Shown piece after piece: positions 9,715 through 56,508 of a stretch of 64,000 nt of DNA. Origin of the DNA: Oscillospiraceae bacterium (GTDB lineage: Bacteria > Bacillota > Clostridia > Oscillospirales > CAG-272); contig SVSW01000002.1 of NCBI GenBank assembly GCA_015064095.1, positions 27,002-91,001 of the forward strand, given 5' to 3'. The notes under the pieces are model-generated. The model was not told the DNA's origin, did not search any database, and saw nothing but the letters and a program-made list of their open reading frames with translations. The first letter of the stretch is position 1. Each line of letters opens with the position of its first letter. The translations under genes and the position numbers were made by a program.

Positions 9715-9720
9715 GATCTT

Positions 9721-32640: not shown

Positions 32641-33501
32641 ATGAGCGATCGCGAGAAAAATGAAATAGTGGGCGGTATGCTCTATCTTGTTGCAACGCCG
32701 ATCGGCAATCTTGCCGATCTTTCGGAGAGGGCTGTAAAGGTGCTCTCGGAGGTTGATTTCATCGCCGCCGAGGACACACGAAACAGCCGCCGACTGCTCT
32801 CGGCACTTGGGATCGGCAAGGAGATGCTTTCGTATCACGATCATAATCGCCGTGAGCGCGGAGAGGAGATCGCGCGCCGCTTAAAAACGGGCGAATCCTG
32901 CGCGCTGATCACCGATGCGGGCACTCCCGGTATAAGCGACCCCGGCGAGGATATGGTGGCGCTTTGCGCCGCCGAGGATATCCCCGTGACCTTGATCCCC
33001 GGACCCTGCGCCGCTATAAACGCGCTCGTGCTTTCGGGCTTGCCGACCGAAAGGTTCGTTTTCGAGGGATTTCTTTCGGCAAAGGCATCGGAAAGGCGCG
33101 CGGCGCTCGATGAGCTTAAAGGCGAAAAAAGGACCGTCATTTTCCACGAAGCACCGCACAAGCTGCGCGCGGCGCTTGCAGATATGTGCGAGGCTTTCGG
33201 CGAGGACCGAAGGATCGCCCTTTGCCGCGAGCTGACAAAGCTCAACGAGGAGATAATCAGAACAACGCTCGGCGGAGCTTGCGAGCTTTATGCGGAGCGC
33301 GAGCCGAGGGGCGAGTTCGTGCTCGTCGTTGAGGGGGCGAAAGATGCAAAGGAAGAAAAGTTCTTTGTCTGTATGACGGAGCGCGAGCACGTCGGACATT
33401 ATATATCGCTCGGTATGAGCAAAAACGATGCAATAAAGGCCGCGGCGCGCGACCGCGGAGTGCATAAAAGCGAGATCTATAAATTTATGATAGAGGAGTG
33501 A
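32641..33501 (+). CDS. rsmI: 16S rRNA (cytidine1402-2'-O)-methyltransferase
   Basis: LYLVATPIGNLADLS, AAEDTR and TDAGTPGISDPG motifs. Confidence 0.92.
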   Translation: MSDREKNEIVGGMLYLVATPIGNLADLSERAVKVLSEVDFIAAEDTRNSRRLLSALGIGKEMLSYHDHNRRERGEEIARRLKTGESCALITDAGTPGISDPGEDMVALCAAEDIPVTLIPGPCAAINALVLSGLPTERFVFEGFLSAKASERRAALDELKGEKRTVIFHEAPHKLRAALADMCEAFGEDRRIALCRELTKLNEEIIRTTLGGACELYAEREPRGEFVLVVEGAKDAKEEKFFVCMTEREHVGHYISLGMSKNDAIKAAARDRGVHKSEIYKFMIEE

Positions 33502-34544
33502 GCGCGTTGGAGATAATAACCGAGGCTGATTTTCGGCGAAGCCTGAAATCGGAGCTTCGAGGCATGTATTTTTTCTTCGGAGCCGAGGACTATTTGAAAA
33601 AGAACGCCGTCCGCGCGGCTCGGCAAAACGTTTGCCCCGACCCTTCCCTCGAATTTTTCAACGATATAAAAATAAGCGGCAGCGAATTTGACCCTGCCGC
33701 CTTTCTCGCCGCTTTGCCCACCCTCCCCGTTATGGCAGACAAAAAGCTGATCGAGATCACGGGCCTTGATATGGCTATACTCAAAAGAGAGTATAAAACG
33801 GAGGCGTTTTTCGCCTGCCTTGCCGAGGCAAAGGAATACGATTTTAACGTGATAATAATAAGCGTTGTTGCCGAAGGGATTGAGGAAGGGCGTTTGCCGA
33901 AATCCCCGTCGGCGGCACTCAAAACGGTCGGCGAATACGCAACGCTCGTCAATTTTGAAAGATCAACGCCCGAGCAGCTTTCCCGCTGGGTCGGCGCGCA
34001 TTTTGCGCACAACGGAATCGAGGCGGCACCCGCTATGTGCGCGGAGCTTATCGAATTTTGCGGCAAGGATATGTTCGTCCTTTCAAACGAAACGGACAAG
34101 CTTTCTTGGTTCTTGCACTCGAAAAACAGAACGAGGCTTGAGCGCGCGGATATAGGAGATATATCGATCGCCGATACGGGATACGATACTTATGCTTTTG
34201 CAAACGCGCTGACATCGCGCCGCCGCGCCGATGCTTTGCTCATTCTTGCGGAGATGAAAAGAAAGCGCATAAGACCCGAGATGATCTTGGGCGAGATCTC
34301 AGCCACGTTTTGCAATATGCTGATGATCCGCCTGCTCGCCGCCGACGGTCTTTCGCCGAAGGATATAGGTCAAAAAATGGGAAAAATGCACGAATATAAG
34401 GTCAAGCTGCTGCTCGCGGCAGCCCCTCCCGCAGATCGCATACGCGAGCTTATCGAGCTTTGCGAGCGCGCCGACGCAGGCGTGAAGCGATCGGTGGTTG
34501 ACGCCTATATGCCGATAGAGCAGCTGATCTGCTCTTTGACGTGA
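33498..34544 (+). CDS. holA: DNA polymerase III subunit delta
   Basis: 348 aa with YFFFGAEDYL near the N-terminus and typical HolA length and architecture. The GTG start overlaps the rsmI stop. Confidence 0.8.
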   Translation: MSALEIITEADFRRSLKSELRGMYFFFGAEDYLKKNAVRAARQNVCPDPSLEFFNDIKISGSEFDPAAFLAALPTLPVMADKKLIEITGLDMAILKREYKTEAFFACLAEAKEYDFNVIIISVVAEGIEEGRLPKSPSAALKTVGEYATLVNFERSTPEQLSRWVGAHFAHNGIEAAPAMCAELIEFCGKDMFVLSNETDKLSWFLHSKNRTRLERADIGDISIADTGYDTYAFANALTSRRRADALLILAEMKRKRIRPEMILGEISATFCNMLMIRLLAADGLSPKDIGQKMGKMHEYKVKLLLAAAPPADRIRELIELCERADAGVKRSVVDAYMPIEQLICSLT

Positions 34545-35058: not shown

Positions 35059-35098
35059 GGCGGAGAATCGTGAAAATTCTCCGCCGCTTTTTTGTTTT
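35059..35098 (+). terminator. rho-independent terminator
   Basis: GGCGGAGAAT..ATTCTCCGCC followed by GCTTTTTTGTTTTTT. Confidence 0.75.
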
Positions 35099-35150
35099 TT
35101 ATTTACAGATAATGATCTCGCACGGCTTGCCCGTTTTTTCGGCGTATTTT

Positions 35151-35519
35151 ATGACCGACGCCGATCACGCGATGCTTGCCGCCGTTGTCGGCGAGATAAA
35201 CGCGAAAATGAAGGTCGGCTGCACGGGCTGCGGATACTGCATGCCCTGCCCCCGCGGCGTTGACATTCCCGGCACCTTTGCGGCGTACAACCGCCGCTTC
35301 TCCGAAGGCAAATTCTGGGCGCTGCGAGAATATTTTATGTGCACTGCCCTTCGGCAAAACGCTTCCTCTGCCTCCGAATGTATCGGTTGCGGCAAATGCG
35401 AGCGCCATTGCCCACAGGGCATAGAGATCCGCCGGGAGCTGAAACGCGCCGAACGTGAGCTTGAGGGCGCGCTTTATAAGACCGCGAAAAAGGTCGCCCG
35501 AAAATTCGTTAAGTTTTAA
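35151..35519 (+). pseudogene. truncated, diverged second copy of the 3' third (ferredoxin domain) of the aldo/keto reductase gene at 22124-23308
   Basis: The translation MTDADHAMLAAVVGEINAKMKVGCTGCGYCMPCP...KKVARKFVKF is nearly identical to aa approx 272-396 of the 22118 ORF. There is no AKR N-domain, no RBS and no promoter. The track ORF's first approx 27 codons (35070-35150) are unrelated read-in. Confidence 0.8.
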
Positions 35520-35561
35520 AAAACGAGGGTTTTATTAAAAATATAAACAAAGCCGCACGAA

Positions 35562-35703: not shown

Positions 35704-36552
35704 ATGAATCCAGTTTTAAAATATCGTGGCGGAAAATCTCGTGAAATTCCCCGTTTTCTTCAATACATACCGGATGACTTTAACAGATATATTGAGCCTT
35801 TTTTTGGCGGAGGTGCAGTTTATTTCCATCTTGAACCTGAAAATGCTATTATCAATGATGCTAACGAGCGGTTGATGACCTTTTATTCTCAATTGCGAGA
35901 TCAGTATCCACTTATGCGACAGCAGTTGGACGACATTCAGCGGGTGTATGAGTTGAATCAGGCAGAATATAAGAGAATGAAAGCCTTAACACCCAATGAT
36001 AGAGTTCCTAATGCAAATGAGGAACTTTATTATCGTATGAGAGAACTATTTAATCATCCAGACGATACATATTTAGATGGGGTTTTGTATTTCTTTATCA
36101 ATAAAACCGCCTACTCGGGAATGATTAGATACAATAATAACGGTGATTATAATGTTCCGTTCGGTAGATACCCAAATCTTAACACTCGACTTGTAACACA
36201 ACAACACAGCGAGCTTTTGCAAAACGCAGAATTATTCAATCTTGATTATAGTCATATTTTTGATATGGCGCAAGAAGATGATTTTATCTTTTTAGACCCT
36301 CCATACGATTGTGTTTTTAATGACTATGGAAACATCGATATGATGAATGGTTTTGATGAAGCGGAGCATATACGTTTAGCGGATGATTTTAGAAATCTTC
36401 CATGTAGAGCGTTGATGATTATTGGGAAAACTCCTCTCACCGAAGAATTATATGGTGATTTCATTTTTGATGAGTATTACAAAAACTATGCGGTAAACAT
36501 TAGAAATCGTTTCAAGAACGATAAAATGCATATCGTAGTAAAAAATTATTGA
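35704..36552 (+). CDS. Dam-family (D12 class) site-specific DNA adenine N6-methyltransferase
   Basis: KYRGGKS, EPFFGGGAV (SAM binding) and the catalytic DPPY are present. Codon usage is AT-rich and unlike the flanks. Confidence 0.9.
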   Translation: MNPVLKYRGGKSREIPRFLQYIPDDFNRYIEPFFGGGAVYFHLEPENAIINDANERLMTFYSQLRDQYPLMRQQLDDIQRVYELNQAEYKRMKALTPNDRVPNANEELYYRMRELFNHPDDTYLDGVLYFFINKTAYSGMIRYNNNGDYNVPFGRYPNLNTRLVTQQHSELLQNAELFNLDYSHIFDMAQEDDFIFLDPPYDCVFNDYGNIDMMNGFDEAEHIRLADDFRNLPCRALMIIGKTPLTEELYGDFIFDEYYKNYAVNIRNRFKNDKMHIVVKNY

Positions 36553-36562
36553 GGTAATAGGC

Positions 36563-38251
36563 ATGGCAAGACTGGACAATAAAGTTTTGTTTTTTACAAC
36601 TTCACCACGAACTCCGGCAAAGATGATCCCTGAAATTGGATTGCTTTGTGATAAATTCGAAGGAAAACCATGGAATAGAATTACACAAGAACAATATATT
36701 GATGAACTTGCGGAAAGTAACTTTTTCGAGGGAACAGGCTCCCCATCTGATAAAGCATTTAGTGCGCGTGATAGAATAAATCGTGCTCCTAAAGCATTAG
36801 GTTTTGTCGACTTGAAACCAAATATTGCACTAACCGATGCTGGTCGTGCTTTAATTTCGGGAAAAAGACCGCAAGAGATTTTTCTGCGTCAATTACTCAA
36901 ATTTCAATTACCTTCACCGTATCACACAGAAAACACCAAAATAAGCGGTACATTTTTTGTGCGTCCATATTTGGAAGTATTGCGATTAATCTATGACCTT
37001 GAATATTTAACCTTTGATGAGTTAAAAATCTTTGCTGTTCAAATCACAGACTATCATAGGTATGAAGAAGTTAAAGATAAAATCTTGAATTTCAGAAAAG
37101 ATAAAGAGTTACATCGTGGACAGTATAAACGATTTATAAATGATGTATGGACAAATGCCGTCTTAGAAATTCATAATGACAGAATTGCCGAAGGTAGAAC
37201 AAGGACAAGAGAAACAAGAGATGCCAGCATAAATACCTTTGTGAAAACTCAAAAAGGGAATATGCGGGATTATGCTGATGCTTGTTTTAGATATTTGAGA
37301 TTTACCGGACTTGTATCCATCGCACACAAAAGCAGGACGATTTCAATTTTCGATGACAAAAAGAGAGATGTTGAATTTATCCTTGTTAATGTCAATCGTA
37401 ACCCTGTTTTCGTGGATGATGAGGATAATTATAAAGCACATTTATTCGATGCTACCACTCCCGAACTATATACAGACAATGTTGAGAATATTATAGATGT
37501 TATTCTTCGCATGAGTAAGTTGACAAGACGTGATTTGGCGGGCTACGATATTGAATCACTAAAAAATTTGCGAGATGACATTGTAGCTCAACACAAAGAA
37601 AATGTTATTCACGAACAAATTGCTGAAATTAAGTCATATGCACTATATTCAGAAATAATCGATACGTTTAACGAAATCGTTTCGGATGAATATTATGATG
37701 CTCCGCTTATGTTTGAGTATAATACTTGGCGGGCCATGACTATGCTTGATGGTGGTAATATTAAAGGCAACTTCAAATTTGATGATATTGGTCAGCCTTT
37801 GTCTACCGCATCTGGGAATATGCCGGATATTGAGTGCGATTATGATGATTTTTCTTTGGCTGTAGAAGTTACGCTACAGTCTGGACAGCGACAGTACGAA
37901 GCCGAAGGAGAACCTGTCGCACGTCATTATGGTCAGTTAAAGAAAAAGTCCGGTAAAGATACTTATTGCTTATTCATTGCGCCGACAATCAATGCAGCAA
38001 CATTGGCTCACTTCTACGGACTGAATCATTTATCAATCGCTCTTTATGGTGGAAAATCTAAGATAATACCGCTTGAATTAGATCAGTTTATGAAGCTTGT
38101 TGAAAATTCATATAGTTATAAAACTCAACCTACACCGACTGACATTCGTCATTTTCTCGATGGCGCTTTGAAATTATGTGAAAAAGCAGTTGATGAAAAT
38201 AATTGGCGCTGTGGCATTCAAGCCTGTGTTGATATGTGGTTAGCATCATAG
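36563..38251 (+). CDS. AlwI/BstNBI/PleI-family type II(S) restriction endonuclease
   Basis: The translation shares block patterns I recall from this family: TSPRTPAKMIPE..FEGKPW, FSARDRINRAPKALGFV, FLRQLLKFQLPSP, MRDYADACFRYLRFTGL, ASGNMPDIE..VEVT..GQRQYEAEGEPVARHY and LFIAP. Confidence 0.75.
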   Translation: MARLDNKVLFFTTSPRTPAKMIPEIGLLCDKFEGKPWNRITQEQYIDELAESNFFEGTGSPSDKAFSARDRINRAPKALGFVDLKPNIALTDAGRALISGKRPQEIFLRQLLKFQLPSPYHTENTKISGTFFVRPYLEVLRLIYDLEYLTFDELKIFAVQITDYHRYEEVKDKILNFRKDKELHRGQYKRFINDVWTNAVLEIHNDRIAEGRTRTRETRDASINTFVKTQKGNMRDYADACFRYLRFTGLVSIAHKSRTISIFDDKKRDVEFILVNVNRNPVFVDDEDNYKAHLFDATTPELYTDNVENIIDVILRMSKLTRRDLAGYDIESLKNLRDDIVAQHKENVIHEQIAEIKSYALYSEIIDTFNEIVSDEYYDAPLMFEYNTWRAMTMLDGGNIKGNFKFDDIGQPLSTASGNMPDIECDYDDFSLAVEVTLQSGQRQYEAEGEPVARHYGQLKKKSGKDTYCLFIAPTINAATLAHFYGLNHLSIALYGGKSKIIPLELDQFMKLVENSYSYKTQPTPTDIRHFLDGALKLCEKAVDENNWRCGIQACVDMWLAS

Positions 38252-38540: not shown

Positions 38541-38577
38541 AAAAAGAGCCCCCCTTTTTAAGAGAGGCTCTTTTTTT
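38541..38577 (-). terminator. terminator downstream of the aro operon
   Basis: AGAGCC..GGCTCT stem flanked by an A-run and a T-run. Confidence 0.65.
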
Positions 38578-38582: not shown

Positions 38583-39608
38583 TTATAATTTATCCGCGAT
38601 GTCGTAGATAAGTCTTTCCGTCTTTTCCCAGCCGAGGCACGGGTCGGTGATCGACTTGCCGTATACGTCGTTTTCATCGATCTTCTGGCAGCCGTCCTCG
38701 ATATAGCTCTCGATCATAAGTCCCTTGACGAGCGAACGGATATCGTTCGAGTGCGTCAGGCTGTAAAGAACGTCCTTCGATATTCTTATCTGCTCCTCGT
38801 ACTTCTTGCCCGAATTTGCGTGGTTCGTATCGATCACGACACCCGGATTTTTAAGACCCGACGCGGCATAAAGACCGTGAAGCGAAATAAGATCCTCATA
38901 GTGATAGTTCGGCATTGATTTGCCGTGCTTATCGACGTATCCGCGCAAGATCGCGTGAGCGTACTCGTTTCCCGACGAGTTGACCTCCCAGCCGCGATAA
39001 ATGAACGTGTGCGCGTGCTGTGCCGCCGTGATCGCGTTCATCATGACCGAAAGATCGCCGCCCGTTGGATTTTTCATGCCGACGGGGATATCAAGTCCGC
39101 TTGCCGTCAGGCGGTGGTCCTGATTTTCCACCGAGCGCGCACCGATCGCAACGTACGACAGAAGATCCGAAAGATAACGGTAGTTCGCAGGGTAAAGCAT
39201 CTCATCGGCACAGCAGAGCCCCGTTTCCGTCAGAGCGCGGATATGCAGGTGGCGGATCGACACGATCCCCTTCAGCATATCGGGCTTTTCCATCGGATCG
39301 GGCTGGTGGAGCATTCCCTTATAGCCGTCACCCGTCGTTCTCGGCTTATTCGTGTAGATACGCGGGATTATAACTATTTTATCCTCGACCTTCTCCTGAA
39401 CGCGCGCTAAGCGGTGGATATAATCCATAACTGCGTCCTCTCGGTCTGCCGAGCACGGCCCGATGACGAGCGCGAATTTATTTGATTCGCCCGTAAATAT
39501 CTTCTTTATCTCCTCGTCGCGCGCGGCTTTTTTCTCTGCCGCCTCGGCTGAAAGGGGGTACATTTCTTTTATTTCCTTCGGTATCGGGAGTTTTCTTACG
39601 AATTCCAT
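38583..39608 (-). CDS. 3-deoxy-7-phosphoheptulonate (DAHP) synthase, class I (AroF/G/H-like)
   Basis: 341 aa with VIGPCSADRED, IIPRIYTNKPRTT..GYKGMLHQPDP and IESYIEDG. Confidence 0.9.
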   Translation of the reverse strand: MEFVRKLPIPKEIKEMYPLSAEAAEKKAARDEEIKKIFTGESNKFALVIGPCSADREDAVMDYIHRLARVQEKVEDKIVIIPRIYTNKPRTTGDGYKGMLHQPDPMEKPDMLKGIVSIRHLHIRALTETGLCCADEMLYPANYRYLSDLLSYVAIGARSVENQDHRLTASGLDIPVGMKNPTGGDLSVMMNAITAAQHAHTFIYRGWEVNSSGNEYAHAILRGYVDKHGKSMPNYHYEDLISLHGLYAASGLKNPGVVIDTNHANSGKKYEEQIRISKDVLYSLTHSNDIRSLVKGLMIESYIEDGCQKIDENDVYGKSITDPCLGWEKTERLIYDIADKL

Positions 39609-39635: not shown

Positions 39636-40493
39636 TTATTTTTTATCGAAAAGCGTGCGGCGTGCGCCGGCTTTTCTCATCGTTTCCTGCATTTTTTCGC
39701 GTTCTCCGACGGCGAGCGCTGCGCGAAATCTCTCAAATTCCGCGGAAAACGCGTCCATCTGTTCGAGCAGCTTTTCGCGGTTCAAAAGGAAAAGCTCGCT
39801 CCACATGACGTCGTTTATCTTCGAGATCCTCGTGAGATCTCGGAACGAGTCGCCCGTGTATTTCTCAAGTCCCTCTTTTTCGTTGCATGTCATAAGAGTG
39901 ACTGCTATGACGTGCGTGAGCTGTGAAAGAAACGCGATCATTTCATCGTGCTCTGCCGGCGTAAGCTCGCTGATCCTCGAAAAGCCGAGCTCCTCGCCGA
40001 GCTTCTTTGCAAGCTCGACTGCCTCTTTCGTGTTCTTCTTTGTTGGGGTGACAATAAAGTTCGCGCCCTCGAAGACCCGATCGTCGGCGTACTCCACTCC
40101 GCTTCGCTCGCGGCCTGCCATCGGGTGCGCGGCGATAAACTCAACGTCGGGACGCAAAATGCTTTGCACCCGCCCGACGATCTCCCCCTTTACGCCCGTG
40201 ACGTCCGTGATAACGGTGTTCGGCGAGAGCAGCTGCTGGTTTTTCTCGATCCACTCGACGAACGCGCCGGGATACAGCGCGAAGATAACGAGCTCTGCCT
40301 CGGCTATCATTTTTTCGTCGATGCCCACTTCTCCTTTGTTTATTATTCCTTTTTCCTTTGCGAACTCAATATCCTCTTGTCGCAAGGTCAAGGCGTTGAC
40401 GGTATATCCTCAGCGCGACAGCGCCATGGCGTAGCTTCCGCCCATCAGTCCGAGTCCGACTATTAAAATATTCGTATTTTTATCAAGCTTCAT
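39636..40493 (-). pseudogene. tyrA: prephenate dehydrogenase interrupted by a single in-frame TGA at codon 28
   Basis: ATG (complement of 40491-40493) gives MKLDKNTNILIVGLGLMGGSYAMALSR, then TGA (complement of 40410-40412). The same frame continues GYTVNALTLRQEDIEFAKEKG... for 257 codons to the stop at 39636. The track shows only the 251-aa ORF restarting at TTG 40391. Confidence 0.75.
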
Positions 40494-41697
40494 ATGTCTT
40501 TATCTCTATTCCAAGTGATGCAAGTTTCGCAAAAAAGTCGGGAAAGCTCTTTGCAACGGCCTCCGCGCCGTTTATAACTCCGCCCGTTTTGGTGCAAAGC
40601 ACCGAAAGCGCCATCACTATCCTATGATCGTTATGGCCGCACAGCTCCTCCTTCGGCGCGTGCAGGCTCGCAGGATATACGACCACCGAATCTCCCTTTA
40701 CCTTAACCGCAGTGCCGAATTTTCGAAGCTCCGCCGCCATTGCCTCGGCGCGATCGCTCTCCTTTATTTTAAGACGTGCCGTGCCTGTGAAGATTCCGCC
40801 GTGCTTTGCCGCTGCCGCCGCGAACAAAACGGGTCCGAGGTCGGGGCAATCGCCGATATGCACCGTCGGTATCCCCAGATCAAGCATTTTTAAATAATCG
40901 CCGCACACGCTGTCGCCCTGAAGGCTGCCCCGGCGCAAGCCGTCGATCTCGACCTCGCCGCCGAGCGTATTCAGCGCCGAAAAGAACGAAGCTCCCGAAT
41001 AGTCGCCCTCGACCTCGGTGACGCGCGGCATATATTTTTGACCGCCTGCGATCTTTATTTTATGGTCGCCCTCGAATTTTACGCTCACGCCGAACTCGGC
41101 AAGCGATGCGACCGTCATATCTATATACGGACGGCTCACAACGGGCGGCGTAAGCTCGATCTCACTGTCACCGTCAAGCAGCGGCAACGAGAAAAGAAGG
41201 CCGCTGACGAACTGGCTGCTTATGTCGCCTGCTATAATATACTTTCCCGATCTCAGCGGTCCGCGAAGGACGACCGAGGTTTTATCCTGGGAAAAAACGA
41301 GATCTTTCTCCTTTGCCAGCTTTGAATAGACGCTCATGGGCCGCGCAAGCAACGACGGTGCACCCGTCATTATCACGTTCTTGCCCGAAAGCCACGCAAG
41401 CGGCGTTAAAAATCTGAACGTGCTTCCGCTTTCGCGGCAGGAAAGCGCCTCCCGCGGCGCGGCGGTCATTATATCAGTCCCGTGAACGCGGACGTTTCCG
41501 TTTTCGTATTCAAATCGCGCGCCGAGTGCCGTCAGGCAGTCTATCGTTGCTCTGACGTCGTCGCAATCCGAAACGCCGCGCACGACACTCTCTCCCTGTG
41601 CCAGCGCGGCGCAGATGAGCAGGCGGTGCGCCATGCTCTTTGACGGGGGTGCTGAGATCCTCCCGACCGCGCGCGAGGGGTTTATTTTTACTTTCAT
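40483..41697 (-). CDS. aroA: 3-phosphoshikimate 1-carboxyvinyltransferase (EPSP synthase)
   Basis: PSKSMAHRLLICAAL, then the LFAAAAA..GG region and DHRIVMAL. The start is at ATG 41697. Confidence 0.92.
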   Translation of the reverse strand: MKVKINPSRAVGRISAPPSKSMAHRLLICAALAQGESVVRGVSDCDDVRATIDCLTALGARFEYENGNVRVHGTDIMTAAPREALSCRESGSTFRFLTPLAWLSGKNVIMTGAPSLLARPMSVYSKLAKEKDLVFSQDKTSVVLRGPLRSGKYIIAGDISSQFVSGLLFSLPLLDGDSEIELTPPVVSRPYIDMTVASLAEFGVSVKFEGDHKIKIAGGQKYMPRVTEVEGDYSGASFFSALNTLGGEVEIDGLRRGSLQGDSVCGDYLKMLDLGIPTVHIGDCPDLGPVLFAAAAAKHGGIFTGTARLKIKESDRAEAMAAELRKFGTAVKVKGDSVVVYPASLHAPKEELCGHNDHRIVMALSVLCTKTGGVINGAEAVAKSFPDFFAKLASLGIEIKTYEA

Positions 41698-41701: not shown

Positions 41702-42130
41702 TTACCTGCCCAAAAGAATGTCCAAAGCCTCAAGATATCCGTCTGTTCCCTTGCCCTTTACGGTGGCGATACATTCGTCGCGTACGTAGCTCACCTGACG
41801 GAAGTCTTCCCTGTCTTCCACCTTCGAGATATGCACCTCGACTGTCGGTATCTTCACGGCGGCGAGCGCATCACGCAGAGCAACTGACGTGTGAGTATAA
41901 GCGCCGGGGTTTATGACTATCCCGTCGGTCTTTTCAAAATACGCCGCCTGTATCCTATCGACGAGCGCGCCCTCGTGGTTCGACTGATATATCTCGACCG
42001 TGACGCCTCGCTCCGCGGCGTGAAATTCCACCTTTCGGCAAAGCTCGGCATAGGTCTCTTTTCCGTAAATATCAGGCTCGCGTATCCCGAGCATATTTAT
42101 ATTAGGTCCGTTTATGACTAATATCTTCAT
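41702..42130 (-). CDS. aroQ: type II 3-dehydroquinate dehydratase
   Basis: MKILVINGPNINMLGIREPDIYG and NPGAYTHTSVALRDA motifs. Confidence 0.92.
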   Translation of the reverse strand: MKILVINGPNINMLGIREPDIYGKETYAELCRKVEFHAAERGVTVEIYQSNHEGALVDRIQAAYFEKTDGIVINPGAYTHTSVALRDALAAVKIPTVEVHISKVEDREDFRQVSYVRDECIATVKGKGTDGYLEALDILLGR

Positions 42131-43365
42131 TTTAAAAAATCCTCTTCTATTTTATTTACCGTGTGCTCTACCGACTCGTCGGTGACTACTCTTACGTCGG
42201 ACGTCGACACGTATATTCCGTATCTTTCCGCGTAGCGCTTTCTTATCGCCTCGGCGCTCGATGCCGTCGGTCTGTTTTCTGTCGGAACGAGCTTTTCGAT
42301 CGCGCGGTCAAGAAAATATATCCTTCCGCTTCTTTTCAGCGCGCGTACGTTTTCCTGCCTCAATATCGCGCCACCGCCCGTGGCTATGACAGCTCCCGTG
42401 ACCGTGTTCGCCGTTTGTCGTACGACATCGCTCTCGATTTCGCGAAAGCCCGCCTCGCCGCACTCGGCGAAGATATCACTGATCTTTTTGCCCGTTTTTT
42501 TCTCTATCAGCACGTCGGTATCGTAAAATTCGCGCCCGAGTTTTATCGCAAGCGCCCGTCCGACCGTCGTTTTTCCCGATGCGGGCATTCCCGTCAAAAC
42601 TATATTTTCTTTATCCGATCTTATTTTTGCATAGATCTTCTCGGTCGGCGCGTCCGCCTCATTGCCGACGAACAGACGCGACGCACGAACTCCCTGCGAA
42701 ACGAGCATATAAAGTCCGCCCTCCGCCGCTATTCCTCTTTCCTTTGCGTTCAGGACAAGATCCGTGCGAAGCGGATTATAGACCGCGTCCAAAACTCCCG
42801 AAAGGCGCTCAAAATGCGATATATCTATCGCGCAGCCGTCGGGGTTCGGGAACATTCCGCACGGGGTGGTATTTATTATCACCTCGGCGTCCGAGTGGTT
42901 CTTCACCGCCTCGCCGTACGTTATCACGCCTTCGCCCGCGCTTCGGCTGACTGTCAATATCTCCCTTGCGCCAAGCTCTGAGCAGACGGCTCTTGCGGTC
43001 CTTGACGTGCCGCCCGTGCCGAGTATCAACACTTTTTTGCCGTAAAGCTCGATGCCTGCGTGGGCGATCAGCTCCGAAAGGCCGTAAAAATCGGTATTAT
43101 ATCCGTAAAGCTTGCCGCCGCGATTGACAACGGTATTGACCGCGCCGATATTTTTTGCGCGTGCGTCGATCTCGTGAAGGAACGGTATGACCGCCTGCTT
43201 ATACGGGATCGTGACGTTCACGGCGCAAAAATCCGCAGCTCTCATAAAGCCTTCAAGCTCGCTCGGTGCAAGCTCGCAAAGCTCGTATTCATAATCGGCG
43301 CACGCCGCGTGAATCTCGCGCGAAAAGCTGTGACCCAGCCTCTCGCCGATAAGTCCGTATTTCAT
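42127..43365 (-). CDS. bifunctional shikimate dehydrogenase / shikimate kinase fusion
   Basis: The N-terminal AroE part has GERLGHSFS, NVTIPYK and NTD. The C-terminal AroK part has the P-loop GMPASGKTTVGRALA and DTD. The start is at ATG 43365. Confidence 0.88.
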   Translation of the reverse strand: MKYGLIGERLGHSFSREIHAACADYEYELCELAPSELEGFMRAADFCAVNVTIPYKQAVIPFLHEIDARAKNIGAVNTVVNRGGKLYGYNTDFYGLSELIAHAGIELYGKKVLILGTGGTSRTARAVCSELGAREILTVSRSAGEGVITYGEAVKNHSDAEVIINTTPCGMFPNPDGCAIDISHFERLSGVLDAVYNPLRTDLVLNAKERGIAAEGGLYMLVSQGVRASRLFVGNEADAPTEKIYAKIRSDKENIVLTGMPASGKTTVGRALAIKLGREFYDTDVLIEKKTGKKISDIFAECGEAGFREIESDVVRQTANTVTGAVIATGGGAILRQENVRALKRSGRIYFLDRAIEKLVPTENRPTASSAEAIRKRYAERYGIYVSTSDVRVVTDESVEHTVNKIEEDFLK

Positions 43366-43367: not shown

Positions 43368-44435
43368 TTACTCCTTTTTGCCGCCTGCGAGAAGATCGTA
43401 TATAACGATCGCCGTGAGGCAATCGACGACTGCACGCGCGCGATGGATTATCGCAGGATCGTGCCGACCCTTAAGATCCAAGACCGCGTTTTCGCCCGTC
43501 TTTATATCGACCGTTCTCTGGCTTTTGAATATCGAGGGCGTTGGGCGCACCGCGCACCGAAAAACGATCGGCATTCCGTTCGTTATTCCCCCGTTTATGC
43601 CGCCTGCGTTGTTCGTTTCGGTCCTGATCTCTGCGCCCTCGGAATATATCGGATCGTTTGCCTCGCTGCCGCGCATCTTTGAGATCCCGAAGCCCGCGCC
43701 GAACTCAACTCCCTTGATCCCCGGGATCGAGAACATCGCGTGCGAGATCAGGCTCTCGACGCTGTCAAACCACGGCTCTCCGAGCCCCGTCGGCACGCCG
43801 TAAACGTAAGTTTCAAGCACGCCGCCGACAGAATCGCCCTCACTTGCCGCCGCTTCGATCTGCGACTTCATTTTCTCACCGATATTTGCGTCAAGCGTCG
43901 GAAAATCCGTTGTGTCAAGGTATTTTATATCGGAAACGACATCAGAAAATCCTCTGTCCTCAATCTCTGCGAGCGAAGCGATATGCGTGCCGATATAAAT
44001 TCCCTTTTTATTCAGCTCCGAGAGCATTATCGCGCCCGCCGCAACGATCGGTGCCGTCAGACGTCCCGAAAAATGTCCGCCGCCGCGACGGTCCTGATAT
44101 CCGCCGTATTTATACTCTGCCGTAAGATCGGCGTGACCCGGACGCGCAAGTGTTCCGTAATCGGAGCTTCTTTTATTTTCGTTCGGTATCAAAATGCAAA
44201 GCGGAGCTCCCGTGGCGCGTCCCTCGTACTCGCCGCTGACGATCGAATACGCGTCACGCTCGACGCGTGCGGTCGATATCTTGCCCGACGGGCGGCGCTG
44301 AGTGAGCTTTTTTTCGATCAGCTCGCGGTCAATGGCCGTGCCGGGCGCAAGCCCGTCGATGACGGCGCCTATCATCTCACCGTGGCTCTCGCCGAAAAGC
44401 GTGATGCTCACGTTATTTCCGAAAGTATTTTTCAT
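43368..44435 (-). CDS. aroC: chorismate synthase
   Basis: FGESHG, RPGHAD and GRHDP motifs. Length 355 aa. Confidence 0.93.
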   Translation of the reverse strand: MKNTFGNNVSITLFGESHGEMIGAVIDGLAPGTAIDRELIEKKLTQRRPSGKISTARVERDAYSIVSGEYEGRATGAPLCILIPNENKRSSDYGTLARPGHADLTAEYKYGGYQDRRGGGHFSGRLTAPIVAAGAIMLSELNKKGIYIGTHIASLAEIEDRGFSDVVSDIKYLDTTDFPTLDANIGEKMKSQIEAAASEGDSVGGVLETYVYGVPTGLGEPWFDSVESLISHAMFSIPGIKGVEFGAGFGISKMRGSEANDPIYSEGAEIRTETNNAGGINGGITNGMPIVFRCAVRPTPSIFKSQRTVDIKTGENAVLDLKGRHDPAIIHRARAVVDCLTAIVIYDLLAGGKKE

Positions 44436-45418
44436 TTTAAAAATCCTTTTATCTCGTTTTTAAATCTCTCGATCGGCATCTTCCGTATCTCGCACGAGCC
44501 GATCTTTTCTACGTACACGACCGAGATCTCGTCACCGTCGAGCTTTTTATCGTGCCCGATCGCCGCGATCACCTTATCTGCATCGACTTCGATCTTTGTC
44601 GGCAGGCCGAGCGTTTTGAGGACCTTTTTGAGCCTTTCCTTTTCCGCACACACGGGTATCATTCCGAGCGCCACGCACTCGCCGTGATAAAGCCCCGTGA
44701 CGCTCTCTATCCCGTGCCCGACCGTGTGGCCGAAATTGAGGATCCTTCGCTGTCCCTTTTCCTTCTCGTCCGCCTCGACGACCGCCTTTTTTATCATAAG
44801 CGAACGGTATATAACGGTGTCGATATCAGCTCCGTTCTCTATCAGCTCGAAAAGCTCGCGGTCCGAGGTCGCCGCCATTTTTACGGCTTCGGCAAGCCCT
44901 GCCGAGATCTGGCGTTTATCTAAGGTCACAAGCGTGTCGGGGTCTATTACGACCGCCTTCGGCTGATAAAATGCGCCGACGATATTCTTTATTCCGCCGA
45001 GATTTATCGCGGTCTTGCCGCCGATCGACGAATCGACCTGCGAAAGAAGCGTCGTCGGTACTCCGTAAAAATCAATTCCGCGCATATACGACGCGGCGCA
45101 AAAGCCCGCAAGGTCGCCGCAAACACCGCCGCCGACTGCGACGACGCAATCCGTGCGCGTAAATCCGAGCGAAAGGAGAGTTTTTTGGACCTTTTCAAAC
45201 ACCTCAATGCTCTTTGATCCCTCACCCGTCGGCACGGTCAGAATATGTGCGTCCTTTGCCTGACGGGCGACCGCCTCGGCGTACTCCTTCGGCACTCCGT
45301 CGTCCGTGAGCACGAGCGTTTTGCGGTCAAGATCAAATATCTTGCCCGCGCGCAAAAGCGCGCCGCGCTCTATTATTATATTGTAAGAATTTTTCCCGAG
45401 TTCAACGGTTAATTTCAT
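44432..45418 (-). CDS. aroB: 3-dehydroquinate synthase
   Basis: GGGVCGDLAGF, NFGHTVGH and the metal-ligand context are present. The start is assumed at the internal Met (MKLTVELG) of the track ORF, whose TTG start is at 45436. Confidence 0.9.
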   Translation of the reverse strand: MKLTVELGKNSYNIIIERGALLRAGKIFDLDRKTLVLTDDGVPKEYAEAVARQAKDAHILTVPTGEGSKSIEVFEKVQKTLLSLGFTRTDCVVAVGGGVCGDLAGFCAASYMRGIDFYGVPTTLLSQVDSSIGGKTAINLGGIKNIVGAFYQPKAVVIDPDTLVTLDKRQISAGLAEAVKMAATSDRELFELIENGADIDTVIYRSLMIKKAVVEADEKEKGQRRILNFGHTVGHGIESVTGLYHGECVALGMIPVCAEKERLKKVLKTLGLPTKIEVDADKVIAAIGHDKKLDGDEISVVYVEKIGSCEIRKMPIERFKNEIKGFLK

Positions 45419-45432: not shown

Positions 45433-46530
45433 TCAATCTCTGTGGCGGTACGACCCGATAAGCTTTAGCTTTTCGCAGCAGCTCCCAAGCTCCGCGAGCA
45501 TCTTTTCGCCCTCGTCACTGTCTATATTTCCCTCTGCCTCAACGTAGAAATAATACTGCCAAAGCAGCCTTTTGTCAGGCCTGCTTCGAAGCGACTGCAT
45601 ATTAAAGCCGTGCTTTCCTATTATATCTATCGCCTGCGCGAGCGAGCCCGCCTCGTTTTTGACGGTGAACATAAGTATAAATCTCATATCCATTCCGCGT
45701 GCCCCGAAATATCGGTTCCGCGCCGCCGAGAGGATAGCAAAGCGCGTTGTATTGTTCGACGATGCATTTATCGCGCGCGCCGCGACCGTAAGACCGTATT
45801 TTTTGCCCGCCTGCTCGGACGCGATCGCCGCAACCGTCGGATCTCCGAGCGCCCTCACTCTCTCCGCTGCGAGCGCGGTGTTCGCAAACTCAAGCGTATC
45901 GTATCCGTGCGCTCTTATATATTCCTCGCACTGATGCAGCGCCTGCGGGTGGCTGACGACCGTTTTTATCTCCCTCGGATCAGCTCCCGGCAATGTCAGA
46001 AGATCCTGCACGATCGCAAGATCGTACGTTCCGTTTATATAAAGCGTTCCCGAATAAAGCAGGTCCGCGACCGTGCCGACCTCGCCTGCCGAGCTGTTCT
46101 CGATCGGAAGCACGACAGCGTCGCACTCGCCGCGCTCAACGGCTTCGTACGCTTCGGGGAAATCGGCGTACCCGATCTTCTCGGCTGACGGAAATATCTT
46201 CTCCGCCGCGATATGCGCAAACGCGCCCTCAGTGCCGCTGTACGCGATCTTCATGCCCTCGATCAATCGGCTCTGATAGTGCCGCGACACTTCCATGGTC
46301 TTTCTGAGAAACTGCACGTAGCATTCGCGGATCTCAGGATCGGCATCGGAAATAAATTCGGAGTTTTTCGCGATCAGTGCGTCCTCACGCGCGCCGTCGT
46401 ATACCGGCAGAGCGTTCTCCTTTTTGTATTCCGCGGCAAGCCTTGCAGCTTCCATTCGGCGCAGAAAAAGACGCGCCATCTCGCGATCGACTTCGTCTAT
46501 TATCTTTCTCGCTTTTTCCAGTTTGTTCAT
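45433..46530 (-). CDS. pheA: bifunctional chorismate mutase / prephenate dehydratase (P-protein)
   Basis: The N-terminal AroQ-type CM helix is IDEVDREMARLFLRRMEAA. It is followed by a PDT domain (IENSSAGEV, TRF) and a C-terminal ACT domain. The start is at ATG 46530. Confidence 0.88.
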   Translation of the reverse strand: MNKLEKARKIIDEVDREMARLFLRRMEAARLAAEYKKENALPVYDGAREDALIAKNSEFISDADPEIRECYVQFLRKTMEVSRHYQSRLIEGMKIAYSGTEGAFAHIAAEKIFPSAEKIGYADFPEAYEAVERGECDAVVLPIENSSAGEVGTVADLLYSGTLYINGTYDLAIVQDLLTLPGADPREIKTVVSHPQALHQCEEYIRAHGYDTLEFANTALAAERVRALGDPTVAAIASEQAGKKYGLTVAARAINASSNNTTRFAILSAARNRYFGARGMDMRFILMFTVKNEAGSLAQAIDIIGKHGFNMQSLRSRPDKRLLWQYYFYVEAEGNIDSDEGEKMLAELGSCCEKLKLIGSYRHRD

Positions 46531-46567: not shown

Positions 46568-46596
46568 ATTATACTACGCACTTTCCCCCTTGTCAA
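46568..46596 (-). promoter_or_regulatory. consensus sigma-A promoter of the aro super-operon
   Basis: On the minus strand, TTGACA is the complement of 46591-46596 and TATAAT is the complement of 46568-46573, with a 17-nt spacer. Confidence 0.65.
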
Positions 46597-46617
46597 GAGA
46601 AAAAGTCAATAAAACCC

Positions 46618-46645
46618 TTGATTTTTTTAATTTTTGTGGTATAAT
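46618..46645 (+). promoter_or_regulatory. promoter of the TetR gene (TTGATT-16-TATAAT)
   Basis: TTGATT 46618-46623, TATAAT 46640-46645. Confidence 0.5.
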
Positions 46646-46658
46646 TAACATTGTTAAC
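46645..46658. promoter_or_regulatory. palindromic operator TTAACATTGTTAAC, copy 2 (overlaps -10/+1 of the TetR promoter)
   Basis: An identical 14-mer exactly 100 bp from copy 1. Confidence 0.55.
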
Positions 46659-46676
46659 AAGCTTTGGAGGTCAATA

Positions 46677-47246
46677 ATGCACGATAACGAAGAATATCTC
46701 GTTCCCGACGAGCTGCAAAAGGCTCTCATCATTGCCGGAATGCGCGAGATCGAACGCCACGGGCTTGCGGACTTTTCCTTGCGCCGCGTTGCCGCGGATT
46801 GCTCGGTCTCATGTGCCGCGCCGTACCGTCACTTCAAAAATAAAAGCGAGCTTATACTCGCCATAATCTTCTATGTAAATCAGCGCCGTGAGCTGCTTGA
46901 AAATCAGATAATTGAGTGCTTTGAGGGCGATATTCGCCGTACCGTGACTGAGCTTTGCGTTGCAAACGTCAGATTTTTCGCGGCAAATCCGAATTTTCGG
47001 CATATTATGCTGCTTGACGCCGCCTCGCTCGACGAAGATCAGCGCGCAGCACAAAGCCGTATGTTTTCAAGGCTTTCGGAGCTTATCTCCTCTCTTACGG
47101 GCGATAAGGACGAGGGTGAACGCCGCGCCGTTGCCGCGCGGGCGATGATCCTCGGCTTCACTCATATGCTCGGCTCGGGCGAGCTTCAAAATAACGATAA
47201 GATCTTCGACGATATAAGAAGATCCTTTGAGAAGATCTTTGAGTGA
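46677..47246 (+). CDS. TetR/AcrR family transcriptional regulator
   Basis: The N-terminal HTH is FSLRRVAADCSVSCAAPYRHFKNKSEL. The start is at ATG 46677 behind GGAGG. The track ORF start 46377 is an antisense read-through extension. Confidence 0.88.
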   Translation: MHDNEEYLVPDELQKALIIAGMREIERHGLADFSLRRVAADCSVSCAAPYRHFKNKSELILAIIFYVNQRRELLENQIIECFEGDIRRTVTELCVANVRFFAANPNFRHIMLLDAASLDEDQRAAQSRMFSRLSELISSLTGDKDEGERRAVAARAMILGFTHMLGSGELQNNDKIFDDIRRSFEKIFE

Positions 47247-50009: not shown

Positions 50010-51467
50010 ATGTCTTATATTGACGAAGTTAAAGTCATTTGGGAAATGGCTAAAAAATCGCTCGCGGAAACTATGACGGAATCTGCCGTTAAGCTCTGGC
50101 TCGGCGATCTTTCGCTCGTTTCCTTTGAAAACAACACGGTCGGCTTTACGATCGAATCCGAATTCAAATACAACACAATACATAAACAGCTCTACAACGT
50201 CAAGATCGCGGACGCTTTCTCGAAGATCATGGGCTTCCCCGTTTCCGTTAACATTGAATTTACCGGAAAGGCGGCTTCGACAGAGGAGCTTATCCGCCGC
50301 ATACGCAGCGAAAACGCAGAGGCTATCGAGCGCGGTGCTTACGCAGGCGAGATCAAAAACAAGCCCACCGAGGAAATGGTTGGCGGCACGATACCTCCCT
50401 ACAACTTTGAATATACCTTTGATAACTTCATCGTCGGCGAATCAAATAAATTTGCTCACGCCGCCTGCCTTGCGGTTGCAAACAATCCGGCAAAGGACTA
50501 TAATCCCCTTTTTATATACGGACCCTCCGGTCTTGGCAAGACGCATCTGCTCTACGCAATAACGAACAAAATAAAAAAAGACAAGCCCGACACGCGCATT
50601 ATATATATAAAAGGTGAGGATTTCACAAATCAGCTGATAGAATGTCTTTCCCGACAGGCAATGCCGGAGTTCCGCCAGAAATACCGCGGCTGTGACGTTT
50701 TGCTTATCGACGATATTCAGTTCATCGCCGGCAAGGATTCAACTCAGCAGGAATTTTTCCACACCTTTAACGCCCTTTACGAAGACCATAAGCAGATAAT
50801 TCTGACCTCCGACCGTCCGCCGCGCGAGATCAAAACTCTTGAGGACCGCTTAAAGAGCCGCTTTGAATGGGGTCTTATTGCCGATATAGACAAGCCCGAC
50901 GACGAGCTTCGTATCGCAATAATCAAGAAAAAAGCGGAGCAGGTCAAAATAGATCTTTCCTCCGAGGTGCTCTCTTATCTTGCTCTCAATCTTCGCTCAA
51001 ACGTGCGCCAGATCGAGGGTGCTATCAAAAAGCTCGCGGCGCTCAGCTTCCTTTCAGGCAAGGAGATAACGCTTGAAAACACAAAATCCTGCATCGGAGA
51101 TCTGCTTGACGGCGCTGAGCCGACGACTGTCACGGTCGACAAGATATTCGGTGCTATGTACAAGCATTACGGAGTTTCAAAGGAGGATATCCTGAGCAAA
51201 AAGCGCAACAAGGAGATCGCAATGCCAAGACATATTGCGATATATCTTATGCGCAGGCTGACGGATATGTCCTTACCCAATATCGGAAAGCTTATAGGAC
51301 GCGACCATTCGACCGTCAAGGCCTCCGAGGATCTTATACAGAAAAAATACCGAGAGGACCCGAATTTCAGCCACGAGATCGAGGATATAAAAAGCGAGAT
51401 CGTTGGCAGCGGCAAGCCGATGCTCGAAAATCTCGATAAAACGGCAGGCAACGCAGAGTTCTTATAA
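50010..51467 (+). CDS. dnaA: chromosomal replication initiator protein DnaA
   Basis: 485 aa with the AAA+ Walker A GPSGLGKTHL, the box VII region and the C-terminal DNA-binding helix (HSTV). Confidence 0.97.
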   Translation: MSYIDEVKVIWEMAKKSLAETMTESAVKLWLGDLSLVSFENNTVGFTIESEFKYNTIHKQLYNVKIADAFSKIMGFPVSVNIEFTGKAASTEELIRRIRSENAEAIERGAYAGEIKNKPTEEMVGGTIPPYNFEYTFDNFIVGESNKFAHAACLAVANNPAKDYNPLFIYGPSGLGKTHLLYAITNKIKKDKPDTRIIYIKGEDFTNQLIECLSRQAMPEFRQKYRGCDVLLIDDIQFIAGKDSTQQEFFHTFNALYEDHKQIILTSDRPPREIKTLEDRLKSRFEWGLIADIDKPDDELRIAIIKKKAEQVKIDLSSEVLSYLALNLRSNVRQIEGAIKKLAALSFLSGKEITLENTKSCIGDLLDGAEPTTVTVDKIFGAMYKHYGVSKEDILSKKRNKEIAMPRHIAIYLMRRLTDMSLPNIGKLIGRDHSTVKASEDLIQKKYREDPNFSHEIEDIKSEIVGSGKPMLENLDKTAGNAEFL

Positions 51468-51801
51468 ACCTGTTGAAAAGCTGTTAGTTCCCTGTTTAAA
51501 ACTTTTGACGGACACTGACAAAGCATGACGGCTAAAAAATTTATCCACATTTTGTCAACACTCAATCAAAAGCATTTCAACATGACAGACACTGCCAAAA
51601 AAATCCCGAAGATCAGCGCCTTCAAGGCTCTCTTGATTTTCCACATTTTCCAAAGCCCCTAATAATACGAAGACTGCTCTTTCATTCTTCCATTCATTCT
51701 TTCTTTCTTTCTTTTTTCGCGCACGCGCGTAGAGAAAAAAATAAAAAGTGTGGAAAACTTTGTAATTTAATCTATTAATAAAAACCGAAAGGAAAAATAA
51801 A
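51468..51801. other. candidate oriC segment (dnaA-dnaN intergenic) with DnaA boxes and AT-rich right end
   Basis: The boxes are a perfect TTATCCACA (51541-51549), TTTTCCACA (51637-51645), TGTGGAAAA (51748-51756) and TGTTGAAAA (51471-51479). The AT-rich stretch TTTGTAATTTAATCTATTAATAAAAA lies next to the last box. Confidence 0.6.
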
Positions 51802-52950
51802 ATGAAGATCATATTTAAAAGACAAACGGCTATTGCCTCAGCGTCCCCTCTTATGTGCGCGACCGCATCAAGATCCGTTCTCCCGATAGGCGACGGTATG
51901 CTCATTGAGGCTAAAAATCCAGATATATGCATCTTTACGACCTACGATCTCGAAAAGGGTATGCGTACCGCAGTCGAGGCAAAGGTCATAGAGGAAGGCT
52001 CTTATATCATAAGCGCTCAGAAGTTTATCCAGACTTTAAAGGTCATGGAAGGTGATGAGGTAACACTCACCGTTGACGATAAGCTCTCCGCTTGCATCTC
52101 ATCGGGCACATCAACTCACCGTATGTCGGCACTTCCGAGCTCCGATTTTCCGAAGCTGCCCGATCTTAAAAGTCCTCTCGGCTACGAGCTCCCTGCCGAC
52201 ACTCTCAAAAAAATGCTCGCAAAAACCATGTATGCGATCGGTGTAAACGATCAGCGACCCGTTCTCAACGGCTGCTTCTTCCGCGTGACGGACGACCGTT
52301 TGCTTCTCGTTTCCTGTGACAGCTTCCGCCTCGCTCGCTGCGCAACTCATATGACGGTTGATAACCGCAACGACGACGGCGAATATCTCCATTATTCGTT
52401 TATTATGCCCGTAAGAACGGTTAATGAGCTTTATAAGCTGCTCCCCGACAGCGACGAGAATATACGCATCTATATGATGAGAAAGCATATGGTCATAATG
52501 CTCGGCGAAATTACATTCTTCTCAAGCCTTATTGAGGGTGAGTACATCGATTACGACCGAATTATAATAAAGACCCACAGAATTTCGATAGAGACAGACC
52601 GCGCCGCTTTAATTTCCGCGCTTGAGCGCGCTGCCCTCGTTACAGAGGAGCGCGTTGCCGGATCCGTACGTTCTCACGTTAAGCTTGAGATCGCCGGAAA
52701 TTCTCTTAAAATTTCCGCAAATTCTTCGACAGGCAGCACCTTTGACGAGATCTTCGTCAAGCACGAGGGTGAGGATATAATCATCGCCTTCAATAACAGA
52801 TATCTTCTCGAAAGCCTGCGCGCCTGCACCGGCGAAAAAATAAAGATATCGCTCTCAACCCCGCTTTCAAGCATCAATATCGAGCCCGTTGACGGCGAGG
52901 AGAACGAAGAAGACATCTTCATGCTCCTGCCCGTTAAAATGAAGGATTAA
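51802..52950 (+). CDS. dnaN: DNA polymerase III subunit beta
   Basis: 382 aa at the conserved position after dnaA with a sliding-clamp three-domain pattern. Confidence 0.95.
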   Translation: MKIIFKRQTAIASASPLMCATASRSVLPIGDGMLIEAKNPDICIFTTYDLEKGMRTAVEAKVIEEGSYIISAQKFIQTLKVMEGDEVTLTVDDKLSACISSGTSTHRMSALPSSDFPKLPDLKSPLGYELPADTLKKMLAKTMYAIGVNDQRPVLNGCFFRVTDDRLLLVSCDSFRLARCATHMTVDNRNDDGEYLHYSFIMPVRTVNELYKLLPDSDENIRIYMMRKHMVIMLGEITFFSSLIEGEYIDYDRIIIKTHRISIETDRAALISALERAALVTEERVAGSVRSHVKLEIAGNSLKISANSSTGSTFDEIFVKHEGEDIIIAFNNRYLLESLRACTGEKIKISLSTPLSSINIEPVDGEENEEDIFMLLPVKMKD

Positions 52951-54080
52951 TGATATGTAATAAAATAGAAGTTTCCGGTTTTCGAAATATTGACTGCGCG
53001 ACGGTCGAGTTTTCTCCGTCCGTCAATATTCTTATCGGAAACAACGCGCAGGGAAAGACTAATTTGCTCGAGGCTATCTATTTTATAACTCTCGGCAAGA
53101 GCTTTCGCTCGGCGACCGAAACGGAGATGATCGGCTTTGAGCGCGAATTTGCATCTGTTTCGCTCGATTTTTCCGACGCTGTGAGAGATCAGAATATATC
53201 CGTTTCCATCTTTCGCGACAAAAGAAAAAAATTCGAGCAGAACGGCGTTAAGATATTCAAAATGTCCGATGTTGTCGGCGAGCTGCGCGCGGTGCTTTTT
53301 TGCCCCGAGCATCTTTCGATAATCAAGGACGGTCCGTCCCTTCGGCGCGGATTTCTTGACGTGGCGATAAGCCAGCTTCGCCCCTCTTATCTTCATTCGC
53401 TTCAAAAATACAATAAGTTTTTAAAGCAGAGAAACAAGCTTTTAAAGGACGCACAGGAAGACCGCACCTCGTTTGATCAGACCGTTGAATTTTGGTCGGC
53501 GGGGCTTGCCGCCGAGGGTGCAAGGCTTGCCCGAATGAGAAAAAAATATACCGAGATCGCCGACGGATACGTTAAAAAATATTTTTCGGAGATGACGGGC
53601 GGTGCGGAGCTGCCGCAGCTCAAATACGCAGGCTCGGCAAAGCAGGATATTGAGCTTTACGAGGACGAAAAAGCGACCGAGGCGAGATTTTACGAGCTTT
53701 TGACCTCAAATCTTGAGCGCGAGATCGCAGTTGGCTCAACGCTTTGGGGAGCGCACAAGGACGATATAGATATTTCGATAAACGGCCGTGAGGCAAGGGT
53801 TTATTGCTCTCAGGGTCAGCAAAGATCGCTCGCGCTTTCAATGAAGCTCGCCGAGGGCGAGATCTGCAAGAACGACTGCGGAGAATATCCCGTTTTCCTG
53901 TTTGACGACGTTTTCTCCGAGCTTGATTCTTTGCGACGCGCGTATCTTATCAATGAAATAAAGGGAAAGCAGGTCATAATGACCGGCTGCGAAACGGGAA
54001 TTTTCGAGCAGGCTCAAAATGCGAATATAATTTCCGTTGAAAACGGTAAATATTTTCAAAATCGATCGAAAGATGAATAA
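52950..54080 (+). CDS. recF: DNA replication/repair protein RecF
   Basis: Walker A GNNAQGKTNLLEA, SMC-like signature SQGQQRSLALSMKLAE and Walker B FLFDDVFSELD. Confidence 0.95.
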   Translation: MICNKIEVSGFRNIDCATVEFSPSVNILIGNNAQGKTNLLEAIYFITLGKSFRSATETEMIGFEREFASVSLDFSDAVRDQNISVSIFRDKRKKFEQNGVKIFKMSDVVGELRAVLFCPEHLSIIKDGPSLRRGFLDVAISQLRPSYLHSLQKYNKFLKQRNKLLKDAQEDRTSFDQTVEFWSAGLAAEGARLARMRKKYTEIADGYVKKYFSEMTGGAELPQLKYAGSAKQDIELYEDEKATEARFYELLTSNLEREIAVGSTLWGAHKDDIDISINGREARVYCSQGQQRSLALSMKLAEGEICKNDCGEYPVFLFDDVFSELDSLRRAYLINEIKGKQVIMTGCETGIFEQAQNANIISVENGKYFQNRSKDE

Positions 54081-54085
54081 AAACT

Positions 54086-56330
<2,245 letters not shown>

Positions 56331-56342
56331 GTTTTCAACACC

Positions 56343-56460
56343 TGTTGATAACTCTGTGGAAAAACAGACAAGATCAAAATTAAAAATTTCGTAAATATAC
56401 AGTATTTGCACGCTTTTCCGTAATTATTCACATTTGTGGAAAATTTTTCGGTTTTCCACA
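56343..56460. promoter_or_regulatory. four DnaA-box-like 9-mers in the gyrB-gyrA spacer
   Basis: TGTTGATAA 56343-56351, TGTGGAAAA 56355-56363, TGTGGAAAA 56435-56443 and the inverted TTTTCCACA 56452-56460. Confidence 0.5.
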
Positions 56461-56508
56461 GGTGAATGATAGGCGGAAACAAATCACTAAAGCGAAAGGT
56501 GAAAAAAA

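Follow-up and report, generated by a model that had tools for sequence, protein, structure and literature searches.

In-frame stop codons are reported to be widespread in bacteria, and most of them to be short-lived polymorphisms (Belinky et al. 2021, PMC7918605). Like the cases described in that study, for which a large drop in protein is expected, the tyrA gene described here has a single in-frame stop and is otherwise conserved; it lies in a 64-kb stretch of DNA (hereafter the window, meaning the whole stretch analyzed). The stronger cases in the study, however, have a stop in two or more species under purifying selection, whereas the stop in the window is found in one near-clonal lineage. 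Reporter experiments in E. coli identified UGA as the leakiest stop codon, decoded mainly as Trp and with more leak when a G is at position +4; readthrough as reported does not exceed a few percent of the normal expression level (PMC11126739). The stop in the window resembles this near-cognate readthrough in being a UGA with G at +4, and Trp would be predicted at a tolerant site. By contrast, the published values are measurements in E. coli, and the window gave no evidence that readthrough is selected for.

Among described enzymes, the PDH of Aquifex aeolicus (2G5C/3GGG) shares with the window TyrA the PDH_N and PDH_C domains, the GxGxxG loop, and the catalytic-His motif HP[MI]AG. A phmmer comparison of the two gave an E value of about 1e-42 over residues 7-279, in which GLGLMGG of the window protein was aligned to the GVGFMGG loop, and AAHPMAG was aligned to the catalytic His motif GGHPIAG. 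Unlike the A. aeolicus enzyme, the window TyrA has its frame broken at codon 28. A second broken tyrA was found in MAG RGIG4028 from roe deer caecum (L008:4001-4849). This ortholog has two in-frame stops, the first being TAG at the residue aligned to query residue 40, where relatives have Lys, and the second being at aligned residue 168. It belongs to the same family, occupies the same operon position, and likewise has an early in-frame stop, but the position and codon of the stop are different and a second stop is present. It is therefore an older or more decayed pseudogene that arose by an independent event, and tyrA loss thus recurs in this group.

In this study, we characterize the interrupted tyrA of the window, which comes from an uncultured Clostridia/Eubacteriales gut bacterium. 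The gene very probably carries a genuine and evolutionarily recent Arg-to-opal nonsense substitution in a near-clonal population, amounting to a knock-out or a knock-down. It is a further case of the transient in-frame stops already known from bacterial genes, and the finding is an ordinary one: strain-level gene loss or knock-down in a gut anaerobe, involving no new coding mechanism or system.

Reading frame of tyrA

The tyrA gene is the seventh of eight genes in a minus-strand operon for aromatic amino acid biosynthesis, ordered pheA-aroB-aroC-aroE/K-aroQ-aroA-tyrA-DAHP synthase (Table 1). Translation of the window from the minus-strand ATG at 40493 gave 27 codons, MKLDKNTNILIVGLGLMGGSYAMALSR, followed by TGA as codon 28 (40412-40410) and, without a change of frame, by 257 further codons ending in TAA at 39638-39636. 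This translation reproduced all of the tyrA coordinates in an initial annotation of the window, which had described an in-frame TGA separating the GxGxxG loop from the rest of the gene. The same annotation had noted an 11-nt overlap between the ATG and the aroA stop; aroA indeed ends at 40483, and the overlap has exactly this length in two relatives (L083 and L084) as well, so ATG 40493 is the orthologous tyrA start. The first 27 codons share 26 of 27 residues with the closest intact ortholog, P0001, indicating that the upstream fragment is homologous and is not a chance ORF.

The conceptual readthrough protein matched Pfam PF02153 PDH_N with 90 bits (cut-off 26.5), the match spanning the stop, and PF20463 PDH_C with 71.3 bits (cut-off 22); all NCBIfam equivalog models were below their cut-offs. 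With both Pfam domains above the gathering scores, the gene is predicted to be a member of the TyrA family, a prephenate/arogenate dehydrogenase. The GxGxxG loop, which forms the core of the Rossmann dinucleotide site, is present as GLGLMGG and is cut off from the catalytic domain by the TGA. The ORF list for this region contains, as had been observed, only a 251-aa ORF initiated at TTG (P0002), which is devoid of the cofactor loop. The seven other operon genes had been described as intact, and all seven gave full-length Pfam matches.

Table 1. Positions of the interrupted tyrA, the other operon genes, and neighboring features in the window
Feature	Position	Strand	Basis
tyrA codons 1-27: first strand and GLGLMGG dinucleotide-binding loop	40413..40493	-	translation, alignment
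In-frame opal (TGA), tyrA codon 28	40410..40412	-	also in L081/L165 and L082/L166
tyrA codons 29-285 and TAA: rest of PDH_N (with HPMAG catalytic-His motif) and PDH_C dimerization domain	39636..40409	-	
251-aa TTG-initiated ORF (P0002) without cofactor loop, reported by gene callers	39636..40391	-	
pheA (chorismate mutase - prephenate dehydratase - ACT fusion), intact, first gene of the operon	45433..46530	-	Pfam
aroB (dehydroquinate synthase), intact	44432..45418	-	Pfam
aroC (chorismate synthase), intact	43368..44435	-	Pfam
aroE-aroK fusion (shikimate dehydrogenase and shikimate kinase), intact	42127..43365	-	Pfam
aroQ (type II dehydroquinase), intact	41702..42130	-	Pfam
aroA (EPSP synthase), intact, stop codon TGA	40483..41697	-	Pfam
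DAHP synthase, last gene of the operon, own AGGAG ribosome-binding site	38583..39608	-	Pfam
Promoter-like site upstream of pheA, 12/12 match to TTGACA-17-TATAAT	46568..46596	-	consensus scan only
Terminator-like hairpin and T-run directly 3' of the DAHP synthase gene	38549..38566	-	consensus scan only
D12-class N6-adenine methyltransferase	35704-36552	+	
AlwI-family endonuclease	36563-38251	+	

Codon 28 in orthologs

Orthologs were recovered from 80 species-representative genomes, at 58-69% identity, and from 80 metagenome contigs, at up to 71%; 161 intact orthologs, L083 and L084 included, entered the count. The residue aligned to codon 28 was Lys in 56 of them, Leu in 22, Gln in 21, Arg in 20, Ala in 12, Asn in 11, Phe in 6, Tyr in 5, His in 4, Val in 2, and Ser and Glu in 1 each; a stop, Trp, Cys, or Gly was found at this position in none of the 161. 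The N-terminal GxGxxG loop was contiguous with the rest of the protein in 161/161, and no ortholog started downstream of the loop; a genuine downstream start in orthologs had been named in the initial annotation as grounds for rejecting an interruption. In the alignment with the A. aeolicus enzyme, codon 28 corresponds to the Ser of LRRSGF, where the first helix ends and the second strand is about to begin. This location fits the variability of the site, and codon 28 is a variable, tolerant surface position.

The two closest proteins, P0001 (89%) and P0004 (82%), both read MALSRRGY around the site and have Arg encoded by CGC at codon 28. It had been expected that relatives would carry a codon one step from TGA, but the change from CGC to TGA takes two steps. 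Judging from these codons, the likely path from Arg to opal had CGA (or TGC) as an intermediate that is not observed; the window tyrA does use CGA ten codons downstream of the stop. Protein-guided scans gave nothing closer than 71% among metagenome contigs or 69% among genome contigs, and there are therefore no intermediate strains by which to date the mutation. An exact-pattern DNA scan with NNN at the stop gave no match in the metagenome contig collection without the carrier JGI samples (see below).

Age of the stop and selection on tyrA

To describe the state of the remaining coding sequence, we used the 104 columns that were at least 95% conserved among 199 homologs. The window TyrA deviates at one of these (Y44F), which equals the median for intact orthologs. 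With L084 as an outgroup, codon changes on the window lineage comprised 27 synonymous and 6 nonsynonymous ones, compared with 24 and 8, respectively, on the lineage of the intact sister L083. The window tyrA shows no sign of relaxed constraint. Its nucleotide identity to the nearest known relative is 83%, and the stop is recent relative to the split from that relative. Of the explanations offered in the initial annotation, a very recent nonsense mutation is well supported, as relatives have a sense codon (CGC in both of the closest) and tyrA is otherwise undecayed.

We propose the following sequence of events for such a mutation. Codon 28 was most likely Arg in the ancestor and is now opal. 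Translation coupled to aroA would start at ATG 40493 and halt after 27 residues, and re-initiation at the downstream TTG would give a protein that has lost the GxGxxG dinucleotide-binding loop and should be inactive. The strain would then have lost most or all of its prephenate/arogenate dehydrogenase activity, and dependence on external tyrosine would therefore be expected, while the common pathway and the Phe branch would remain intact. Residual activity, if any, would come from near-cognate tRNAs that read UGA without programming, in most cases as Trp, giving trace amounts of enzyme; Trp at codon 28 would fall where aromatic and hydrophobic residues are already tolerated. Tyrosine auxotrophy of the strain is thus probable as far as can be predicted from 64 kb. 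The window contains no second tyrA, and a second dehydrogenase may be encoded elsewhere in the genome. For metabolic reconstruction, likely tyrosine auxotrophy is the state to assign to this population despite its complete-looking aro operon. Caution is also needed in annotation, since the product named by gene callers is a 251-aa "prephenate dehydrogenase" without a cofactor loop.

The undecayed state of tyrA fits a very young mutation and continued selection on a readthrough product equally, and the two cases are inseparable here because there are no diverged carriers. We therefore weighed a maintained leaky stop, in which the UGA is kept and its low-level decoding as Trp gives a down-tuned, full-length TyrA as an expression valve for the Tyr branch. 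The leakiness of UGA, its decoding mostly as Trp, and the raised E. coli readthrough of UGA-G, the context found here (PMC11126739), are compatible with such a valve, as are the Phe, Tyr, His, Leu, and Val residues tolerated at codon 28 in orthologs, the undecayed coding sequence downstream of the TGA, and the argument by Belinky et al. that many in-frame stops do not mark pseudogenes (PMC7918605). However, the TGA is confined to a near-clonal set and has no evolutionary depth, neither a stop nor Trp occurs at the site in any of the 161 orthologs, and the search for a stimulatory RNA structure was negative (fold z = -1.4); in addition, the absence of decay is expected equally of a young mutation, and the readthrough figures come from E. 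coli, another lineage. A maintained stop would be recognized by its presence in diverged genomes together with purifying selection downstream, but the next relatives (at most 89% amino acid identity) have sense codons. We consider a maintained leaky stop improbable, and still less probable is its stricter form, in which a few percent of UGA-to-Trp readthrough supplies just enough TyrA for the opal codon to be retained as a heritable down-regulator rather than a knock-out. Low-level readthrough had also been suggested in the initial annotation; it may occur as generic UGA leakiness, but the sequence has no sign of programming.

Carriers of the same TGA

If the TGA were a sequencing or assembly artefact, the true genome would have a sense codon such as CGA at codon 28. 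The exact 251-aa JGI gene call, P0002, was found on three JGI contigs, and DNA was recovered for two of them. The TGA is present in both. An 82.9-kb contig from sample 3300031555 (L081/L165) shows a single SNP relative to the window in 20,756 bp, and a 23.2-kb contig from sample 3300032167 (L082/L166) shows none in 11,271 bp of identical sequence. The TGA was found only in contigs that match the window with an identity of 99.995% or more. Its recurrence in two other samples makes a random base-call error very unlikely. The sole SNP lies at position 34117, inside a holB-like gene (33498-34544), where the window has A (+ strand) and the contig has C.

The independence of the samples is limited, as the carriers are near-clonal and the two samples may share a study or an inoculum. 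An artefact would be in keeping with the metagenome assembly as source, with the comparison of contigs rather than reads, with the origin of every carrier, all of them almost identical, from one data provider, and with the Arg at codon 28 in the nearest relatives. Against this, the same base occurs in contigs of two sample accessions, one of which has a SNP elsewhere relative to the window; the change is a substitution and not a homopolymer indel; and no other gene across the 64 kb has a broken frame. We consider an artefact highly improbable, and the base-call or assembly error that had been listed among the options is largely excluded by the shared TGA.

TGA as a stop codon and the possibility of recoding

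Approximately 20 selected genes of the window are terminated by TGA, including hisS, the DJ-1 gene, and dut, which had already been cited as evidence that TGA is a genuine stop, and the four operon genes aroA, aroE/K, aroB, and pheA. Genome-wide reassignment of UGA is excluded because TGA is normally used as a terminator; under codes of the table 4/25 type, genes do not end in UGA and conserved genes often contain it, neither of which is seen in the window. A codon-usage scan for in-frame stops was not discriminating, as antisense frames were scored as coding, and it was replaced by Pfam coverage of approximately 50 ORFs together with a check for adjacent ORFs in the same frame, which revealed no other stop-split gene in the window. 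An apparent frameshift between ThiI and AspRS, whose ORFs overlap at 16269-16471, was dismissed, as each protein gives a full-length match to its family; the ORFs overlap because the first possible start codon was taken. The tRNA genes in the window are tRNA-Gly(CCC) and tRNA-Ser(GGA) only; the 64-kb window contains no tRNA-Sec or suppressor tRNA, and its Rfam matches comprise no others besides these two.

Specific recoding, either of this UGA as selenocysteine or, more broadly, of UGA as an amino acid in this organism through a code 4/25-like table or a UGA-reading tRNA, is extremely unlikely. The frame is kept perfectly across the UGA, and a weak hairpin can be drawn approximately 17 nt downstream of it, as recoding would have it. 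The 86 nt around and after the UGA, however, fold at -21.5 kcal/mol (z = -1.38), no better than shuffled sequences, 18 of 200 of which fold as well; no SECIS-like fold was found downstream of the UGA by this comparison, and Rfam gave no match. Cys, Trp, and Gly are absent from the site in all 161 orthologs, and the site is a variable surface position; tRNA-Sec and suppressor tRNA are absent from the window, where UGA is the normal terminator of many genes and no further in-frame UGA occurs within genes. The initial view that selenocysteine is unlikely was borne out by the lack of Cys in the 161 orthologs, the missing SECIS-like fold, and the variability of the site.

A functional split or truncated enzyme, with the 251-aa product from TTG 40391 working alone or with the 27-aa peptide, is hardly credible: this ORF is annotated by gene callers and still matches PDH_N and PDH_C, and GAGGA within and after the stop codon could be a weak ribosome-binding site, but its spacing of 15 nt to the TTG is longer than usual, and the product is implausible as an enzyme because it lacks the first strand of the Rossmann fold and the GxGxxG loop, which are contiguous with the rest in 161/161 intact orthologs. 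A recent nonsense substitution in an otherwise intact tyrA thus remains our preferred explanation.

Operon context and neighboring genes

The tyrA stop is separated from the DAHP synthase gene by 27 nt. The aroE-aroK product is 412 aa long and consists of Shikimate_dh_N and SKI domains, and this fusion is also found in the relative L083. The promoter-like site upstream of pheA faces the promoter-like sites of a divergent gene for a TetR-family regulator (46568-46678; regulator 46677-47246, +), which is a candidate for control of the aro operon. An Rfam search of the window gave neither a T-box nor any other leader for this operon. A dnaA-dnaN-recF-(small ORF)-gyrB-gyrA cluster occupies 50010-59046 (+), and the aro operon is therefore approximately 3.5 kb from the likely replication origin region.

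A restriction-modification pair (35704-38251, +) lies between the 3' end of the aro operon and a fragment of an aldo/keto-reductase-4Fe4S gene. Since the pair is absent from that position in L084, it is probably a recent insertion. The fragment contains a 370-bp copy (35152-35521, +) of 22941-23310 (+), with 89% DNA and 94% amino acid identity; the copy corresponds to the 3' third of the gene, whose full copy is at 22118-23308, and is located within a 149-aa ORF fragment at 35070-35519. In the relative L084, the DAHP synthase gene is followed immediately by a full AKR-Fer4 gene and tmk. The fragment and the arrangement in L084 point to rearrangement at this locus or, alternatively, to a foreign flank that arrived together with the neighboring restriction-modification genes.

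Two further loci in the window were noted. An 875-aa ORF at 11066-13693 (-) has a C-terminal ribosomal L15/L27A-like segment (residues about 800-872) as its sole recognizable domain; this segment scored 60 bits with Pfam and was below the NCBIfam rplO cut-off, and the architecture, with the first 800 residues unannotated, is unusual. Three consecutive ORFs of 332, 172, and 216 aa at 8155-10733 (+) had no Pfam or NCBIfam match. Those of 172 and 216 aa occupy different frames, the sequence between them has open stretches, and a frameshift is possible.
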